A stretch of DNA of 64,000 nucleotides, taken from assembly GCA_963756875.1 (NCBI GenBank), contig CAVWPA010000003.1, positions 736,001 through 800,000 on the forward strand, written 5' to 3'. Made by a program: the position numbers. Shown here one piece after another: positions 15,001 to 30,000 of this stretch (positions within the stretch are counted from its first letter, which is position 1; each line of letters opens with the position of its first letter). Source of the DNA: an uncultured Verrucomicrobiae bacterium (GTDB taxonomy: Bacteria > Verrucomicrobiota > Verrucomicrobiia > Chthoniobacterales > UBA10450).

Positions 15001-18000
15001 GTGGCGGAGGCGCATGCTCATGGAATTCCAATTGCGTTGGCGAACGCGCGTCTCTCTCCGCGATCGGAGCGGAGATTTCGCCGTTTTCGACAGTTCGTTA
15101 CGCCTACTTTTCGTCTTCTTGATCTGATTTGTGTGCAGGAACCGGAGGATGTCGATCGCTGGGCTGCGCTGGGCGTCGATCGCTCCCGTATCCATTGCAC
15201 CGGCAGTATCAAGTTCGATCCGGGCAACATTTCTCTCGATCCAACGCTCGCGTGCAATGTTCTCCGCGAGTTCGAGATCGACGCAAACCGGCCGATCCTT
15301 TTGGGCGGAAGCACGCATTCCGGCGAGGAGGAAATTCTGGCCAGCATTTTCATGGAACTTCGCTCTCAGTTTCCGGGGTTGTTCCTCGTGATCGCTCCGC
15401 GCCATGCGGAGCGCGGACGAGAAGTTCAACGCAGTCTTAAGCAACTCGGCTTGCGCGTGGTATTGCGCACTCAGCCCATCGCTGATGCGGCGTCCGATTG
15501 CCTGATTCTTGATAGCACCGGTGAACTGCGAAACTGGTATGCTGCGGCGACAATCGTGTTCGTGGGGAAGAGTCTTACCGTCCATGGAGGGCAAAACCCG
15601 GCCGAAGCCATCGCCGCGGGTAAGCCGGTCTTATTTGGGCCTCACATGGAGAATTTCGCCGCGCTCGCGCGATCGCTTGTCGAACAGAAAGGCGCGATAC
15701 AGGTCGAAAACAAGAAGGGGTTGAAAGAAGCAATTTCCACTCTGCTGAACGACGAAAATCGCCGCGAAAAGTTGAGCCAGGATGCGCATCGAGTCCTCGA
15801 AAAGCACCGCTACGCGACGGCGCGCGCCGCGAAGCTGATTAATTATCTCGCGGCCCGGGCTGAAAACCCCGCAGGCTAGCTTCATGTCGCTTGGTTCCCG
15901 CCGGCTTCGTTTGCGAAAAATGCAAGGAAACGCTGGGCCCCAGATTGGATCGTTTTCCGGCAATTTACCTTGCGTGCATCGGTCTCAATTCCGATATTGC
16001 CCGGCTTTTGTGACCCTATCGTCCAGAGGCCTAGGACACCGCCCTTTCACGGCGGTAACACGGGTTCGAATCCCGTTAGGGTCGCCATTCGACTCGGCCC
16101 CATGAAGGGCCTCGCTCATGCGACTTGATCCCCAATTTGCCCTAGCTTGGGCGTGGGATTAGGTCCAATTATGCCAAACATCAATACCAGGAAGGGCTTG
16201 ATCGGTATTCTCACCGGCGGCGGGGATGTGCCGGGGCTGAATCCCGCGATCCGCGCGGTCACGGTTCGCGCCCTGCGCGAAGGCTACCAGGTGGTCGGTC
16301 TCCGGCGTGGCTGGCTTGGCGCGATCGGCATCGTGCGCGATGAGCACGCCGACAACAGTGAGAACTTTCAAATCCTGACGGAAGAGATCGTCAATCGTGC
16401 GGCACGCACAGGCGGCACGTTTCTACATACGTCGCGTACGAACCCGCCGGCAGTGAAGAAAGAAGATGTGCCTGAGCCGCTGCGCGAAACCTACAATCAA
16501 GACAAGAACGATCTCACCCCTGAAGTCATCAAGAACCTGGATTGGCTCGGCATTGACTATCTGATTCCGATCGGCGGCGACGACACGCTTTCTTTTGCGA
16601 CCCGCTTGCACAAGGAAGGCGTCAAGGTCGTCGCGATACCCAAGACGATGGATAATGACGTGCCGGGCACCGATTATTGCATCGGATTTAGCACCTGCGT
16701 CAGCCGCACGATTGAGTTGTCGAATCGCCTCCGCACATCGGCCGGATCTCACGAACGATTTCTCGTGATGGAAGTATTCGGACGCTACGCGGGGTTCACC
16801 GCGATGCTGCCGACGATGGCGGGCGCGGCGAATCGGTGCGTCATCCCCGAATACAAATTCGACATTGAGCATCTGACCGAATTGTTGTGCTATGACCGCG
16901 CGCGCCATCCGAGCCAATATTCAGTCGTCATCGTTTCAGAAGGGGCAATATTCGAAGGGGGTGAGATGGTGTTCTCCGGCAAGAGGACCGATGCGTTCGG
17001 GCACGCGAAGCTCGGCGGCATCGGCGACCTGGTCTCGGCAGAACTCCAAGACCGCTCCTCCAAATACAACAAGGGCAAGCCTATACATGTCATCAATCAG
17101 CGTCTCGGCTATATGGTGCGCGGCGGCGATCCCGACGCGATTGATTCGATTGTGCCCATGGCGTACGGCAACCTTGCCCTTGATCTCATCTTGCGTGGCA
17201 GCCAGGGCCGCCTCGTCGTCTTGAAGAATGGGCGCTATGACAACGTGCCGATCGAAGTGGTGACCAGCACCAAGAAAACGGTCAACGTCGACAAGTACTA
17301 TAACAAGGAGCGCCTGCGTCCGCTCTACACCGATTTCGAAATGCAGCCGCTATTCATCATGGCAAGCGAGCAGGGCTGAAGCCAAAATGCGGTTTCAGCC
17401 GCCTTGGTAAATATTAGACAACTACGCGCGCGCGAAATCCTCCTTTTTCGCCATAACGCGCAGTCTACAGCGCATTTGTGGCGGAAATTGCGCAGAATCA
17501 CGAAATGTGAAAATTGGTTTCGAATCCCGTTAAAGGTCGATTGGAATGGTGTTCTCTTCGTTTTTGTGGTAGGAAATACGCCCCCTCAAATGCAGACGGC
17601 TTTCTTTCAATCTGGCCTTGAACATCCGCATGGCGGTCGCGCACGCGCCATCATCAAAACGCATCCGGAAGTCCGGGAATTGATGGTGCGCAATCCATAC
17701 ACGGCCCTGATCACGCTGTCACTCCTGGTCCTGCAAACAGCGATTGCATACGGGATGGGAAAACTCGGGTTCGGTTACTGGTGGCTCAGCTTGCTGGTGG
17801 CGTATTGCCTGGGCGCGTTCGCCAATCATGCCAACTACGTCATCATTCATGACGCGACGCATAATCTCATTTTGCGGAGCAAAAGCTGGAATAAAATGAT
17901 CGCGATTATCGCCGATCTTCCCAATTTAACGCCCGGTGCCATGGGCTTTCGGGTTTATCATTTAAAGCACCACTCGCATCAGGGTGATTACGAGCACGAT

Positions 18001-27000: not shown

Positions 27001-30000
27001 ATTACGTTTGGGATTGCGATATAAAGGAGCAAAATGGGAAGGGCCAGCGCCGTCCAATTCCACGGGGTGCGCATTTGCAGAAAGCCTCGCAGTATCGCCA
27101 CTAAAAGGAGAGGAAAAATAAGTATGTAGTACCGAGCAGTGCCACCGAGACAGACAAAAATGATCGCAATGTAGATCAGCGCCCACGGCGCGTGAAATTT
27201 CCAGAAAAGCCGGTCTTGCAGATCCCGGGGCCCGAGGATGTAGGCAGCGAATCCCCCGACGATCATCGCGATTCCAATTGCCAGTGTGACCGGCGATTGC
27301 AGAAATCCGAAACCGAGTCCGAACCAGCCGAGAAGGAAGTGTTCGGCGAAACGCGTCGCCAAATAATGAGCGCTCCAATTTCCCGCCCCGATGAAGGTAT
27401 GCGGCTTGTCCAGGCGCCACTGCCATTGGCCGTAGACAAGTTTTGGATAAACAAGCCACGCGGGAACATCAGGTCGCAAACGCGCCTGCAAATACCACAT
27501 CGGCAACAGCCACACTAGGCAGCTCGCGATCAAAACGCCCACGGCCAGGATAGATATCTTCCAGCGAGCATGTCCCATCTTTAACGCCGCGATGAGAATG
27601 ACGATGACAATCAGAATCAATTGAGGTCGCGCGCCGCTAGCAGCGGCTCCGCATAAGGACGCGCCCAACAAAGCGGCCACACTCCGGCGCTGCCAAAAAC
27701 AAATTGCCGCGAAAATCTCCAAACTCAGGAATCCTGCCGCGAGACTATCTGTCATAATTTTCGTCGCCGTCAGCCAAACGGCAGGCATAACCGAGAGGCA
27801 CGCAGCTATCCACCACGCCAAGCGCTCGTTGAGCTGAGATCGGATGATAAGAAACCATGCCGCAATGAAAAGTGCGCCGCCCACACACGACACGAGATGC
27901 AAAGAAGTTTGAGGACTGAGTCCCAAGCCCCTGGTGCCAATCCAGCCGAAGAAAATAAAAAGCGGATACCCCGGTGGATGCGGTTGATTGTTCCAGAGAT
28001 TAAATGCGCGAACACCCATGGCGAAGTTTACGGAATCGAATTCGTCAAGGCCGGCAGAACGTGTCAGCAGGTAAACTACGAACATCACCACAAAGATGGC
28101 GGCGGCTTTGACCGCCGTTTCGTAATCAACCCGGTTTGCGGCAAGCGCGCCGTTCCCTGCTTGAGATTTGTGAAGAATTCGCTGGCCCATCTTCCCACCG
28201 AATCTTCTCGATGCGAGCCGATTCGACAAGGTGGAATGATGTAGCGGCAGCCATAGCGGAATGCGCTATAATCAACGTCCTTGATTGCGAGTTTACGCCG
28301 CTGGGCCAGTCTTACTCTTAGCCGTGGTTCGCCCCGAGATGGTCGCGAGCGGCGGTCGCGCGGTGTTTTTCGGGTAATGCGTCCGCTTTGGTCGGCCGGC
28401 TTCTGGCGATTCTTGTCACCATCGTCTCGGTCCCGCTCACGGTTGGATATCTGGGGAGTGAACGCTACGGCGCATGGGTGACGATTGTAAGCGTTCTCAC
28501 ATTTCTGAGTATTACCGATGCGGGTCTGGCTGCCAGTCTTACAAACGCGCTGGCCAAGGCTCAAGCCGAAGACGCGCGCGATGTCGGCCAGCGTTACGTT
28601 TCGTCCGCTTTCTTTACATTGTCGTTAATTGCGGTGGTCATTCTCATTTTCGGCAATGCACTCGCGCCGCAGATTTCGGCATTTTTGTTTCCAAGTCTGC
28701 AATCCCCAGCCGCGCGCCCTGAAATCGTTACCGCAGTAAGGGCCGCGCTGTCGATCTTCGCGCTGAATCTTCCGTTTCTGGTCAATGCTCGTGTGCTGGC
28801 CGCGCATCAAGAAAGCGCACTGGCCAACCTTTGGAACGTAGCAGGAACCGTCGGCAATCTCGGCGCTATCTCGCTGTTATCTGGTTTCGAGGCAGCCTTC
28901 CATGGCTTATCTTGGGCTGCTTCGGCTTCGGATTGCTGACGAACATCATTTGCGCCATCTGGTTGTTCGGGTTTCACAAGCCGTGGCTGCGGCCGGGGGC
29001 TGCCGGCGTCGCGCCGGCCTTTATCAAATCCCTTCTTTCCGATGGTTGGAAATTTTTCGTAATCGGCATCGGCTGGATGATCAACTGGCAAACGGACAAC
29101 GTGGTCATCGCGCACTTTCTGGACGTGGCGCAGGTGACCCCATATGCTGTCACGTTCAGCCTCTTTGCGCTGGCAACCGGGTTGCAAGCGCTTGCCTATC
29201 AATCGCTTTGGCCGGCTTACACCGAGGCATTCGCGCAACGCGACTACGCTTGGATCCGCCAGACCTTGCGCTCGAATTTCAAATTCAGCTTCATTACCAC
29301 GATTGCAATTCTCGGCACGCTTACGATTTTTGGCAGCGACATCATCCGGCTCTGGGCGGGCCCGATCGCAGTGCCACCATTTTCAGTGATTGTCTGGATG
29401 GCCGTCTGGCGGCTGATGTTATCGACGCTCATGGTCGGGGTTGCCTTCTCAATGCGACCGGACATCTGAAAGGCATGACGATTTACGGCAGTGTCACCGC
29501 AGTCTTAAACCTCATCTTATCGATCTTACTGGCCAAGAGGTACGGCATTACTGGTGTCATCGCCGGGACAGCCATCGCCTACGCCGTCGCCAGCTACATC
29601 CCAACGTTTTTGGAAGTGAGAAGCGTGCTGCGAAAGTGTTGTCCCTCTGAATGAATGTCATTATTGACGTTACCAGCTCGTGCCGGTCTGTCCAAAGCAC
29701 CGGCGTTCAGAGGATGACGCGCAAAATTTTCGCGGAGCTTTCGCAACGTCTGCCGGTTACACCGATTTGCTGGAGCGAGATCGGCAGATTTTATCAAAGG
29801 CTCGGCCCCGTCGAGCACAAGCTATTGACCCGTCCTTTTGATGTACGTTCGCGACCGACGACGCGCCCGGAGATTCGCGGTCAAAAATCCGATTGCGGAA
29901 CTCCGGAGGCTCATGTTTCTGCGTCGATTCGATCTGGCGAATTCGCTTACAGAAAACGATGTTTTTATCCTGCCGGATGGTCACCACGATTTGCGGGGTA

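Follow-up and report, generated by a model that had tools for sequence, protein, structure and literature searches.

The pairing of a cytidylyltransferase with a CDP-alcohol transferase to build a bacterial phosphosphingolipid head group has a precedent in the Caulobacter CPG2 pathway, according to the relevant passages of two reports (PMC12275187, PMC11324152). The only published proposal that involves CDP-inositol, as set out in part of PMC9246714, goes through phosphatidylinositol-diacylglycerol (PI-DAG) and a HAD enzyme. Functional FA2H homologues have already been described in myxobacteria, where a passage of PMC10002949 ties them to sphingolipids. Here we analyzed a gene cluster from a genome placed in Chthoniobacterales, a lineage on which literature searches found no paper. 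We consider it fairly likely, as the best explanation of the whole, that this cluster makes an inositol-phosphate sphingolipid by a Kennedy-type CDP-inositol route. If so, this conserved cluster of a soil Verrucomicrobium would use a route that is not known from eukaryotes.

Organization of the gene cluster

All coordinates are positions within the window, the 64,000-nt stretch of DNA that was analyzed. ORF calling and a Pfam scan of the ten cluster ORFs, in which only matches over the gathering score were counted, showed that 17590-28229 is filled by ten adjacent, intact ORFs, called as non-overlapping. A preliminary description had proposed a ten-gene sphingolipid cluster here, with inositol-3-phosphate synthase nearby. 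The genes are indeed real, intact and adjacent, their family assignments stand by Pfam and motifs, and the synthase gene lies about 8.7-9 kb beyond the cluster. The features are as follows.

17590..18618, + strand: DES1-like sphingolipid desaturase/C4-hydroxylase family protein, 342 aa (Lipid_DES and FA_desaturase)
18566..19234, + strand: FA2H/Scs7-type fatty-acyl 2-hydroxylase without a cytochrome b5 domain, start codon uncertain (FA_hydroxylase)
19464..20744, + strand: serine palmitoyltransferase (SPT)-like alpha-oxoamine synthase (Aminotran_1_2; PDB matches; context)
20761..21714, + strand: CDP-alcohol phosphotransferase A, 317 aa, proposed CDP-inositol:ceramide inositolphosphotransferase (CDP-OH_P_transf)
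21719..22846, + strand: bCerS-like GNAT acyltransferase (Acetyltransf_1)
22843..24060, + strand: CDP-alcohol phosphotransferase B, 405 aa, AF2299/DIPPS-like, with a cytosolic N-terminal domain (CDP-OH_P_transf)
24124..25074, + strand: radical SAM enzyme of an uncharacterised family, CX3CX2C and five further conserved Cys (Radical_SAM)
25088..25894, - strand: inositol-1-phosphate cytidylyltransferase-like (IPCT-like) NTP transferase (NTP_transf_3/NTP_transferase)
25864..26667, - strand: KdsR-like SDR reductase, 3-keto reduction (adh_short)
26664..28229, - strand: PMT_2 (GT-C) membrane glycosyltransferase (PMT_2)
28388..29654, + strand: probable MOP-family flippase, split across three reading frames (three overlapping ORFs)
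29651..30860, + strand: GT4 glycosyltransferase with one frameshift near 29885 (Glycos_transf_1)
30855..33968, - strand: MacB/Lol-type exporter genes (ABC ATPase, FtsX permease, HlyD-like adaptor), all broken (tblastn, translations)
33972..36736, - strand: two intact outer-membrane efflux (OEP/TolC-like) genes (OEP, 66.6 and 177 bits)
36922..38025, + strand: myo-inositol-3-phosphate synthase, MIPS (Inos-1-P_synth, 123.9 bits)

The top PDB matches of the SPT-like protein are Sphingobacterium SPT structures (3a2b/8guh, E 7e-77), with KBL barely behind (2e-73), and the NCBIfam SPT models give 259-316 bits, under their cut-offs; we assigned the gene at 19464-20744 as Spt from its gene context. In the bCerS-like protein, Acetyltransf_1 spans residues 232-361. 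The reductase matched adh_short (143.9 bits) and, over its full length, the KdsR model NF049977 (163.9 bits, under the cut-off of 400), and its gene adjoins the IPCT gene in every cluster examined. It resembles the Bacteroides KdsR SDR and not the Caulobacter CerR family, whose name the preliminary description had used in its title.

Ceramide and inositol genes occur together

To place the cluster, we compared 40 genomes, 24 of the same family and 16 of other families of the order. Within the family, the bCerS-like gene was found in 22 genomes, transferase A in 19, and the long, B-type DIPPS-like transferase, the IPCT orthologue and MIPS in 21 each. None of the 16 genomes from other families yielded either transferase, the IPCT orthologue or MIPS, and eight of them carry a CerS-like homologue at about 30% identity. 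The entire ten-gene order is repeated in one genome (G021, 47-91% identity), and its core, SPT-A-CerS-B-(radical SAM)-IPCT-KDSR, is found again in seven other genera as well as in the public locus L024. Across the family, the core consists of SPT, CerS, transferases A and B, IPCT and KDSR together with MIPS, and the desaturase (DES), hydroxylase (FAH), PMT_2 and radical SAM genes are accessory. Because the cluster is tied both physically and phyletically to MIPS, the IPCT-like gene and the two transferases, a CDP-inositol route to inositol-phosphoceramide is the best reading. This part of the pathway in the preliminary description was upheld, while its labels "plant-like", CerR and "viperin-like" were not.

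Both transferases carry an intact DxxDGxxAR...GxxxDxxxD motif. Transferase A scored 46.4 bits against CDP-OH_P_transf, and the NCBIfam models for PIP synthase, archaetidylinositol-phosphate synthase and DIPPS were equally weak (42-48 bits). Transferase B matched 4o6m (E 2.3e-17) and 4mnd (6e-15) among PDB sequences, and its structure model (pLDDT 73) retrieved AF2299 (5e-12) and IPCT-DIPPS (8e-10) in Foldseek. In the long transferases of relatives, an NTP-transferase-like N-terminal domain is still fused to the transferase.

Among the alternatives, one that we regard as unlikely is that MIPS, IPCT, A and B make a diacylglycerol-based phosphatidylinositol or a soluble di-inositol phosphate, in which case the ceramide would carry another head group or none and would receive inositol indirectly via PI or never. 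Passages of Heaver et al. propose that in Bacteroides vulgatus and Prevotella CDP-inositol and DAG give PI-DAG and then PI-DHC (PMC9246714). The closest solved relatives of transferase B are AF2299 and DIPPS, and the DIPPS product is soluble. Furthermore, INO1(MIPS)-IPCT-A, contiguous in the Acetobacteraceae loci L035 and L040, has no SPT inside the 10 kb flanks in most Acetobacteraceae loci (SPT in 3 of 80), and therefore A may use diacylglycerol there; locus L038, on the other hand, brings together the radical SAM, A, IPCT, FAH, CerS and SPT genes. Against this alternative, transferase A is wedged between SPT and CerS and adjoins the CerS-like gene in 18 of the 19 family genomes that carry it, B is located between CerS and IPCT, and no PAP2/AUR1-like or HAD enzyme was seen among the cluster genes scanned. 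In addition, exactly the two family genomes without CerS (G007 and G013) also lack MIPS, IPCT, A and B. For the favored inositol-phosphoceramide, we tentatively propose that ceramide is the acceptor of A rather than of B.

Substrates of the desaturase and the hydroxylase

The DES1-like protein matched Lipid_DES (27.9 bits, cut-off 23) and FA_desaturase (90.8 bits), and its translation contains three His boxes, HDATH, HLKHH and HNEHH. The FA2H-like protein matched FA_hydroxylase (74.8 bits) and contains four His motifs. Both belong to families of membrane di-iron enzymes whose substrates are not readable from sequence, and they could act on other lipids, such as glycerolipid acyl chains, lipid A or ornithine lipids, with their position in the cluster being incidental. 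Consistent with this, NCBIfam gave weak carotenoid-hydroxylase matches alone for DES and none for FAH, and DES, present in 12 of the 24 same-family genomes, is far from CerS in three of those 12. We nevertheless consider a non-ceramide substrate rather improbable, given the Lipid_DES match over the cut-off, the location of DES no more than 8 kb from the CerS-like gene in the other nine genomes, and the DES-FAH pair immediately upstream of SPT in four genera and in L024. Residues 31-219 of the FA2H-like protein also matched the yeast ceramide hydroxylase Scs7 in a PDB sequence search (4zr1, E 7.8e-34), and the sphingolipid-linked myxobacterial homologues point the same way.

The desaturase had been called plant-like or eukaryote-type. 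This label reflects reference bias, because DES-like proteins bearing Lipid_DES fall into large clusters in which every known member comes from a bacterium. A search at E<=1e-10 gave 5987 matches to DES-like proteins; the best 120 of these have 73-84% identity, and their source names, where given, are Spartobacteria, Chthoniobacterales or Verrucomicrobia MAGs.

The activated alcohol

The IPCT-like protein matched three solved IPCTs (2xme, E 7e-24; 4mnd, 1e-23; 4jd0, 4e-18) at E-values 12 to 18 orders of magnitude lower than that for LicC (1e-6), and the IPCT half of NF041135 gave 128 bits. The cytidylyltransferase family alone does not fix the substrate, because Caulobacter CpgD, whose nearest structure is also the T. 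maritima IMPCT, makes CDP-glycerate, and the COG1213 family takes in choline and glutamine enzymes as well (passages of PMC12275187). The cluster could accordingly activate a non-inositol phospho-alcohol, for example phosphoglycerate, and yield a ceramide phosphoglycerate-type or other anionic sphingolipid. We hold this to be quite improbable in view of the preference for IPCT structures, the occurrence of MIPS in 21 of 24 same-family genomes against 0 of 16 others, and the direct contiguity of MIPS with IPCT in loci L023, L035 and L040.

The radical SAM enzyme

The protein matched Radical_SAM (69.3 bits) with the motif CNLSCGYC, and its family alignment shows invariant C39/C43/C46 and C245/C263/C292/C296, with C300 conserved in at least 90%. 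In its structure model (pLDDT 87.9), the predicted fold neighbors BlsE, viperin, MoaA, AbmM, SkfB and SuiB are tied (Z 15.6-21.1 over 216-283 residues). A prokaryotic viperin, that is, an antiviral nucleotide dehydratase merely located in the cluster, is very improbable: PADLOC pVip models match at E 6.5e-16 and viperin structures appear among the modeled fold neighbors (Z 18-19.6), but the pVip match covers the radical SAM core alone (residues 34-139 versus model positions 5-106 of 257), NCBIfam viperin_w_prok and viperin reach 49.6 and 38.1 bits against cut-offs of 180 and 450, BlsE, SkfB and SuiB have equal or higher fold scores, five additional Cys are conserved, and synteny is conserved with lipid genes and with no defence context. 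On the same evidence, including the fold tie with MoaA, the earlier name "viperin-like" is too specific.

The gene had also been reported in 1 of 40 other genomes of the order. We found an orthologue (68-91% identity) in 6 of the 40 and a paralogue of about 30% identity in 6 more (E<=1e-10), all within the same family; the gene is present, as two types, in 12 of its 24 genomes. It adjoins the long CDP-OH transferase in several phyla, and because this adjacency is conserved, the guess that the enzyme may act on the CDP-linked alcohol gains some support. No characterised member of this family was found in the comparisons run.

Glycosylation and export

The PMT_2 protein scored 29.2 bits (cut-off 26.1) and had no match among PDB sequences; homologues lie inside the clusters of G021 and L024. 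That it glycosylates the lipid is plausible because the loci of relatives continue into a flippase, glycosyltransferases (GT2, GT4, PIG-V-like), a PIG-L-like gene and a MacB-type exporter. In this genome, the middle flippase fragment gave a sub-threshold Polysacc_synt match (E 3e-4), and comparison with the flippases of relatives showed no similarity. The GT4 gene (Glycos_transf_1, 80.8 bits) aligns with its G017 orthologue in frame 2 and then in frame 3, and its best PDB matches are weak (inositol-3-phosphate glycosyltransferase, 2.6e-5; PimA, 2e-4). Translations and tblastn with intact relatives revealed frameshifts or in-frame stops and garbled stretches in the exporter genes, which in L024 are unbroken and directly adjoin the cluster. 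Because the adjacent flippase, GT4 and exporter genes are broken, later pathway steps may not run in this genome. Its single PIG-L gene sits on another contig, and a search of the genome for PIG-V-like proteins gave no match, as did its control.

Proposed pathway

From gene content, motifs, synteny, phyletic co-occurrence and fold relations, we infer substrates and products, including the acceptor, the head group and the radical SAM chemistry, as follows. Spt would join serine and an acyl thioester, and the KdsR-like SDR and the bCerS-like GNAT, in either order, would give dihydroceramide. MIPS would provide inositol phosphate, which the IPCT-like enzyme would convert with CTP to CDP-inositol, and transferase A would transfer inositol phosphate onto ceramide to yield inositol-phosphoceramide. 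Transferase B probably attaches a second phospho-alcohol to the head group, because DIPPS, its relative of known structure, transfers inositol phosphate to a hydroxyl group of inositol. The DES1-like enzyme may introduce either a delta4 double bond or a hydroxyl at C4, the N-acyl chain may be 2-hydroxylated by the FA2H-like enzyme, and the radical SAM enzyme, as partner of the long transferase, may alter the CDP-linked cyclitol or the head group. The lipid would then be flipped, glycosylated periplasmically by the PMT_2 GT-C enzyme and, in relatives, exported by a MacB/TolC-type pump.

Comparison with known systems

The cluster shares Spt and a GNAT-type ceramide synthase-like gene with Caulobacter crescentus (Spt, bCerS, CerR), and the CPG2 head group is likewise built by a COG1213-type cytidylyltransferase (CpgD) and a CDP-alcohol transferase (CC_1159 domain), as described in parts of PMC12275187 and PMC11324152. 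In contrast to Caulobacter, the cluster has a KdsR-like SDR, two transferases and a radical SAM partner, and no ceramide kinase was seen in it; because MIPS is linked, inositol phosphate is the most likely alcohol to be activated.

The inositol-phosphoryl-dihydroceramide of Bacteroides (BT_1522/23/25/26) is also an inositol sphingolipid with a MIPS entry point, and the alternative cluster of B. vulgatus and Prevotella likewise combines an NTP transferase with a CDP-alcohol transferase, with a proposed, unconfirmed use of CDP-inositol. In the relevant passages (PMC9246714), these routes form PI-DAG and then use a separate PI-to-ceramide transferase (BT_1522 or the HAD enzyme), no counterpart of which was seen among the cluster genes scanned. 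The embedding of the transferases among ceramide genes suggests that inositol phosphate passes directly to ceramide.

The closest solved relatives of the IPCT-like enzyme and transferase B, in sequence and fold, are archaeal/Thermotoga IPCT/DIPPS and AF2299. Here, however, separate genes encode the two activities, within a sphingolipid cluster and in a lineage of mesophilic soil bacteria, and the transferase acceptor is probably a lipid head group instead of free inositol phosphate.

The DES1-like and FA2H-like enzymes have Pfam families and His-box patterns in common with eukaryotic DES1/DES2 and FA2H/Scs7 (plant FAH1/2), and their reactions on ceramide are probably the same; plant FAH likewise has no cytochrome b5 domain. 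The cluster proteins differ in that the large families to which they belong include many proteins from bacteria.

With BlsE, viperin, MoaA, AbmM and the SPASM/twitch maturases (SkfB, SuiB), several of which act on cytidine or other nucleotides, the radical SAM enzyme shares a partial TIM-barrel fold, but none of them stands out as its closest neighbor, and its family is distinct in gene context and in the conserved Cys pattern of the C-terminal part.

Finally, mycobacterial PIM/LM and eukaryotic GPI assembly follow a logic of cytosolic sugar addition, flipping and periplasmic or luminal GT-C extension. Relatives similarly place GT4, a PIG-L-family deacetylase and a flippase beside inositol-lipid genes, with GT-C (PMT_2, PIG-V-like) and GT2 enzymes alongside. 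Unlike in those systems, the lipid here would be ceramide-based, and in this genome PMT_2 is the only intact gene of this kind nearby.

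Gene content of the cluster

The ORF listing and the translations show ten densely packed genes, the first seven on the forward strand and the following three on the reverse strand, and a myo-inositol-3-phosphate synthase gene nearby. The features on which the analysis turns are listed below.

17590–28229, ten-gene cluster: DES, FAH, SPT, A, CerS, B and radical SAM (+); IPCT, KDSR and PMT_2 (−)
20761–21714 (+), transferase A, CDP-alcohol phosphotransferase, 317 aa
22843–24060 (+), transferase B, long AF2299/DIPPS-like transferase, 405 aa
25088–25894 (−), IPCT, inositol-1-phosphate cytidylyltransferase-like gene
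36922–38025 (+), MIPS (INO1), myo-inositol-3-phosphate synthase

The products match Lipid_DES with FA_desaturase, FA_hydroxylase, class I/II aminotransferase (alpha-oxoamine synthase), CDP-OH_P_transf (twice), GNAT, Radical_SAM, NTP_transferase, adh_short and PMT_2, all above the Pfam gathering score, and the catalytic motifs of DES, the hydroxylase, both transferases and the radical SAM protein are intact in the translations. These results confirm the ten genes of the preliminary description and the family it had named for each, and the synthase it had placed nearby is present. The GC content is 0.53–0.56 over the cluster and 0.55–0.60 in the rest of the window, without a compositional break.

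The preliminary description had taken these genes for a CDP-inositol route to inositol-phosphoceramides. The inositol-sphingolipid interpretation is the best-supported reading of the cluster and in our judgment a fairly probable one, strengthened by phyletic co-occurrence and by synteny across phyla. Some of the accompanying details had to be revised, namely the specifically plant-like enzymes, the viperin and the CerR reductase, and half of the genes are accessory.

Conservation in the family

We searched 40 relatives, of which 24 belong to the same family and 16 to 15 other families of the order; three genomes flagged as unpublished (G002, G007 and G014) enter the tallies by presence or absence only.

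Occurrence of core genes among the 40 relatives (gene; same family; other families)
bCerS-like; 22/24; 8/16, at about 30% identity only
Transferase A; 19/24; 0/16
Long B-type transferase; 21/24; 0/16
IPCT orthologue; 21/24; 0/16 (24–30% paralogues only)
MIPS; 21/24; 0/16

None of these five genes was found in G007 or G013. Of the 19 A-positive genomes, 18 have A and the CerS-like gene as neighbours by coordinates, and the order SPT, A, CerS, B, (radical SAM), IPCT, KDSR recurs in 20-kb loci of nine relatives. In one relative, G021, the order of the complete set of ten is preserved at 47–91% identity, and the public MAG contig PMTM01000008.1 (locus L024) bears the same cluster. The tailoring genes are more scattered. 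DES is present in 12 of the 24 family genomes and, in a phylum-wide sample, in 1 of 200 other genomes, which is the sample's sole member of the same family. A radical SAM orthologue occurs in 6 of the 40 relatives and a paralogue of about 30% identity in 6 more, G003 having both. B keeps its place between the IPCT and CerS genes even where neither radical SAM type is present, which makes it independent of the radical SAM enzyme. The tallies therefore define a family-wide core that comprises the ceramide synthesis genes, MIPS, IPCT and both transferases; tailoring would fall to DES, the hydroxylase, the radical SAM enzyme and PMT_2. The ten genes had been treated as one pathway, and by these tallies half of them are accessory.

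Three loci of relatives show particular arrangements. At 8229–11584 of L016 (G003:C13), both radical SAM types flank a long NTP_transf-like/CDP-OH transferase, whose strand the paralogue shares; the orthologue is divergent. At 9242–19968 of L013 (G012:C5), the radical SAM orthologue lies apart from the ceramide genes and adjoins a KDSR fragment, a flippase, GT9, two PMT_2 genes and a PIG-L-family deacetylase, with a second pair of CDP-OH transferase and radical SAM genes at the locus edge. In G008, which is 72% complete, the IPCT orthologue (G008:C3:1060317-1061055; L012 8818–9550) reads through 3–6 in-frame stops, mostly TGA, aligns as two overlapping pieces and appears broken.

Proposed ceramide-building and tailoring enzymes

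The DES protein matches Lipid_DES N-terminally (27.9 bits, cut-off 23) and then FA_desaturase (90.8 bits, cut-off 29.7). The family is defined by the histidine boxes HX3H, HX2HH and HX2HH, and the translation has HDATH, HLKHH and HNEHH. A PDB sequence search with DES gave zero matches. In 9 of the 12 DES-positive genomes of the family, at most 8 kb separate the DES gene from CerS, and this synteny is the available support for a predicted dihydroceramide desaturase, although the enzyme may instead be a C4-hydroxylase. Those DES-like homologues that carry names are from Spartobacteria, Chthoniobacterales or Verrucomicrobia MAGs, and numerous DES-like matches at 73–84% identity suggest that the lineage is putatively common in soil metagenomes. 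Narrow searches of open-access text with few terms brought up no publication on a DES1-type enzyme from bacteria.

The hydroxylase (FA_hydroxylase, 74.8 bits; four His motifs in the translation) aligns with the catalytic domain of yeast Scs7 (4zr1, E 7.8e-34, residues 31–219), and its alignment to the full-length Scs7 entry 4zr0 is confined to residues 182–370. The protein has at most 222 aa, and Pfam found in it no match to the cytochrome b5 domain of the yeast and animal form. FA2H homologues are functional in myxobacteria (PMC10002949). Contrary to what had been proposed, neither DES nor the hydroxylase is specifically plant-like; their families hold many bacterial members.

The SPT-like protein scores below all NCBIfam SPT cut-offs (316 against 640, 312 against 500 and 259 against 670 bits) and reaches 341 on bioF against a cut-off of 426. 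Its best PDB matches are the Sphingobacterium SPT entries 3a2b and 8guh (E 7e-77), with KBL close at 2e-73. The gene clusters with the ceramide genes, and the protein would work as an SPT by genomic context; the scores do not establish membership. The CerS-like protein has its Acetyltransf_1 (GNAT) domain at residues 232–361 of about 375 aa and is encoded beside spt. The reductase, an SDR, was thought to be of CerR type, yet it is not of that family: it matches the KdsR model NF049977 from end to end (4–265 against 6–267 of 267) at 163.9 bits, under the cut-off of 400. Because both proteins score under the NCBIfam cut-offs, the names SPT and KdsR rest on context. The PMT_2 (GT-C) domain scores 29.2 bits against a gathering score of 26.1, and NCBIfam and PDB sequence searches with this protein were both without a match.

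Probable inositol head-group enzymes

Among solved structures, the NTP transferase is closest to IPCTs (2xme 7e-24, 4mnd 1e-23 and 4jd0 4e-18); its next match is 2ggo at 1e-12, and LicC follows at 1e-6. MIPS, the presumed source of inositol phosphate for this enzyme, is contiguous with IPCT in three loci of the L series (L023, L035 and L040), and in the latter two, both from Acetobacteraceae, an A-type transferase is contiguous with them as well.

Both transferases carry the signature DX2DGX2AR...GX3DX3D, in the form quoted in PMC9246714. Transferase A has DNADGQLAR...GRVIDSLVD and 46.4 bits on Pfam CDP-OH_P_transf, and transferase B has DGCDGEIAR...GGRLDTWTD and 35.1 bits. The former scores 42–48 bits alike on the NCBIfam models for PIP, AIP and DIPP synthases and is best described as a putative generic inositol-type CDP-alcohol transferase. 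The latter combines a cytosolic N-terminal domain with a transmembrane transferase domain and matches AF2299 (E 2.3e-17) and IPCT-DIPPS (6e-15) in the PDB by sequence, and again by fold in Foldseek (5e-12 and 8e-10; the model has a moderate pLDDT of 73), which characterizes it as a predicted AF2299/DIPPS-like enzyme.

The radical SAM enzyme

The CX3CX2C motif of the radical SAM protein is intact, and its structural model is confident (pLDDT 87.9).

Fold neighbours of the radical SAM model (neighbour; Z)
BlsE; 21.1
SkfB; 20.8
SuiB; 19.7
Viperin-like enzymes; 18.4–19.6
MoaA; 18.9
GDGT-MAS; 17.6
BtrN; 15.6
AbmM; 15.6

The top neighbours of this predicted structure are effectively tied. The description of the enzyme as viperin-like does not survive: the NCBIfam viperin models give 49.6 bits against a cut-off of 180 and 38.1 against 450, and the PADLOC pVip match covers the radical SAM core only (residues 34–139), so that viperin and prokaryotic viperin were both rejected as identities. 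Besides the cysteines of the SAM cluster, C245, C263, C292 and C296 are invariant and C300 is at least 90% conserved in 28 sequences. They form a C-terminal pattern, CX12GX4C...CX3CX3C, which we take to resemble the auxiliary-cluster motif of twitch and SPASM proteins. Pfam SPASM has no match in the window's protein and is annotated on 16–23% of members in two related Atlas clusters. The Atlas clusters for this family carry generic names only, and searches of open-access text with few terms found no paper on the family and nothing relevant on radical SAM enzymes with CDP-alcohol and inositol lipids. The enzyme is most safely described as belonging to an uncharacterised radical SAM family. Several of the fold neighbours act on cytidine nucleotides, and because of these substrates and of the gene partner, we tentatively favor CDP-inositol or the inositol head group as the most likely substrate, an assignment that may hold with a probability well short of even.

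The radical SAM gene across phyla

A scan of one genome per species with an 11-sequence alignment yielded 510 relatives of the radical SAM protein, of which the best 80 loci were kept; the counts in this section refer to these 80. By a profile search, 9 of the 80 loci have a long transferase immediately next to the radical SAM gene, and 17 have a CDP-alcohol transferase of any kind in the flanks. The nine pair loci come from Chthoniobacterales, Planctomycetales, an Opitutae-type Verrucomicrobium, Alpha- and Gammaproteobacteria, Myxococcales, Gemmatimonadota and Caulobacteraceae, and six of them belong to the 11 loci with at least 47% identity to the window's protein. The Acidobacteriota loci, at about 40–45% identity, have no long transferase beside the radical SAM gene; its neighbours there are LolD/LolA/FtsX-like genes or an LPG_synthase_TM gene. 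With the window's proteins as queries, the flanks contained SPT in 3 of the 80 loci, CerS in 2, IPCT in 10 and INO1 in 6. The radical SAM subfamily therefore follows CDP-alcohol and inositol genes, not ceramide genes. One locus, L038, holds the radical SAM gene, A, IPCT, FAH, CerS and SPT together.

In the representative library, members of the family are fused with GT2, DedA/VTT and methyltransferase domains. On a Gemmatimonadota MAG (L039:8136-10034), a 632-aa ORF, the one genuine fusion of this kind, joins CDP-OH_P_transf to Radical_SAM, and a second radical SAM homologue follows; the radical SAM part of the fusion is only 25% identical to the window's protein, which makes it no more than a distant hint. 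The apparent N-terminal fusions in eight other loci (L022, L031, L034, L035, L038, L042, L044 and L080) were discarded as merely open upstream frames: none resembles any cluster protein, the two that were scanned (L022 and L038) have no Pfam domain at E≤1, and in L022 a long transferase lies on the opposite strand within the open frame.

Two further loci are of separate interest. On an Alphaproteobacteria MAG (L025 7314–12357), the pair has a class III aminotransferase and a GFO/IDH/MocA oxidoreductase as neighbours and INO1 close by, a combination that would fit an aminocyclitol head group. A 43%-identical radical SAM homologue (L032 2120–3154) adjoins NosD-like and lipase-like genes on a 7-kb contig labelled as a Promethearchaeota MAG (Asgard archaeon); it could be a binning artefact or a transfer.

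Surroundings of the cluster

In relatives, the cluster continues with a MOP flippase, GT2 and GT4, a PMT_2 or PIG-V-like GT-C enzyme, a PIG-L-family deacetylase and MacB/FtsX, ABC, HlyD and OEP transporter genes; in L024, flippase, glycosyltransferase and transporter genes run straight on from PMT_2 with full-length matches. This arrangement points to export of the lipid after flipping and subsequent extension by GT-C enzymes. PF04188 (PIG-V-like) has no match in the window's own genome, and since the control genomes likewise have none, this result carries little weight.

At 28388–33968 of the window, six consecutive envelope genes contain frameshifts or in-frame stops. The MOP-like flippase is split over three frames, the GT4 gene has one frameshift, and the ABC ATPase, FtsX/MacB permease and HlyD-like adaptor show in-frame stops and garbled stretches. 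No such breaks are seen in the ten cluster genes, in both OEP genes or in the long ORFs that occupy, with few gaps, the remaining ~58 kb of the 64-kb window. A search of sequencing runs returned one soil run with 7% of words. The damage at 28.3–34 kb reflects either decay of the genes there or a fault of the assembly at this place.

The remaining neighbourhood contains the following genes.

12064–15879, AsmA-family protein, RsmD-like methyltransferase and Kdo transferase KdtA, directly upstream of PFK and the cluster
38054–44367, genes for a UvrD-like helicase (1091 aa) and a PD-(D/E)XK nuclease protein (1031 aa), both large and intact
44408–47886 (−), SelB and SelA (selenocysteine incorporation), side by side

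The first group places the lipid locus in an envelope-biogenesis neighbourhood and indicates that LPS synthesis is present. The helicase and nuclease look like an AddAB/RecBCD-type pair. Because SelB and SelA are present, in-gene TGA codons of this genome need care.

Comparison with known systems

Bacterial ceramide synthesis by Spt, bCerS and CerR is established. Inositol-phosphoceramide is a lipid characteristic of fungi, plants and protists, which make it from phosphatidylinositol via AUR1-type synthases, and its bacterial form is documented mainly in host-associated Bacteroidota. A direct transfer from CDP-inositol to ceramide would be a new biosynthetic solution, and the cluster offers testable candidates for several of the steps: both transferases, a bacterial enzyme of DES1 type and a radical SAM family whose chemistry is uncharacterised. 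Many bacterial proteins share the families of the 'eukaryote-type' tailoring enzymes, which bears on the evolution of sphingolipid tailoring.

What is most original in the cluster is that a radical SAM enzyme is paired with the long transferase. A speculative extension, which we regard as unlikely when taken as a whole, would make the genes of the radical SAM enzyme and the long (IPCT/DIPPS-like) transferase a two-gene unit conserved in Verrucomicrobiota, Planctomycetota, Alpha- and Gammaproteobacteria and Myxococcota. On this view the pair would add a second head group to inositol-phosphoceramide, a cyclitol phosphate modified by radical chemistry; a deoxy, keto or epimerised inositol derived from CDP-inositol would be an example. 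Relatives would go on to glycosylate the lipid along PIM/GPI-like lines and to export it through a pump of MacB-TolC type. We take the logic of flipping, GT-C extension and export to resemble mycobacterial PIM or eukaryotic GPI assembly. If true, the second head group would define a class of bacterial envelope sphingolipids without a eukaryotic counterpart.

Narrow searches of open-access text with few terms found no relevant literature on sphingolipids of Verrucomicrobia, Chthoniobacter or this lineage. Spt-like genes were counted in 22 Black Sea Verrucomicrobiota MAGs in a study whose passages on them make no mention of inositol or desaturases (PMC11334938). Bacteroides makes inositol-phosphoryl-dihydroceramide via PIP-DAG and PI-DAG, and a CDP-inositol alternative proposed for B. 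vulgatus and Prevotella, unconfirmed, still proceeds via PI-DAG and a HAD enzyme (PMC9246714). The CPG2 head group of Caulobacter involves the cytidylyltransferase CpgD, whose product is CDP-glycerate, and probably a CDP-alcohol transferase domain protein (PMC12275187, PMC11324152). The cluster is a variant, with new features, of known bacterial phosphosphingolipid pathways.
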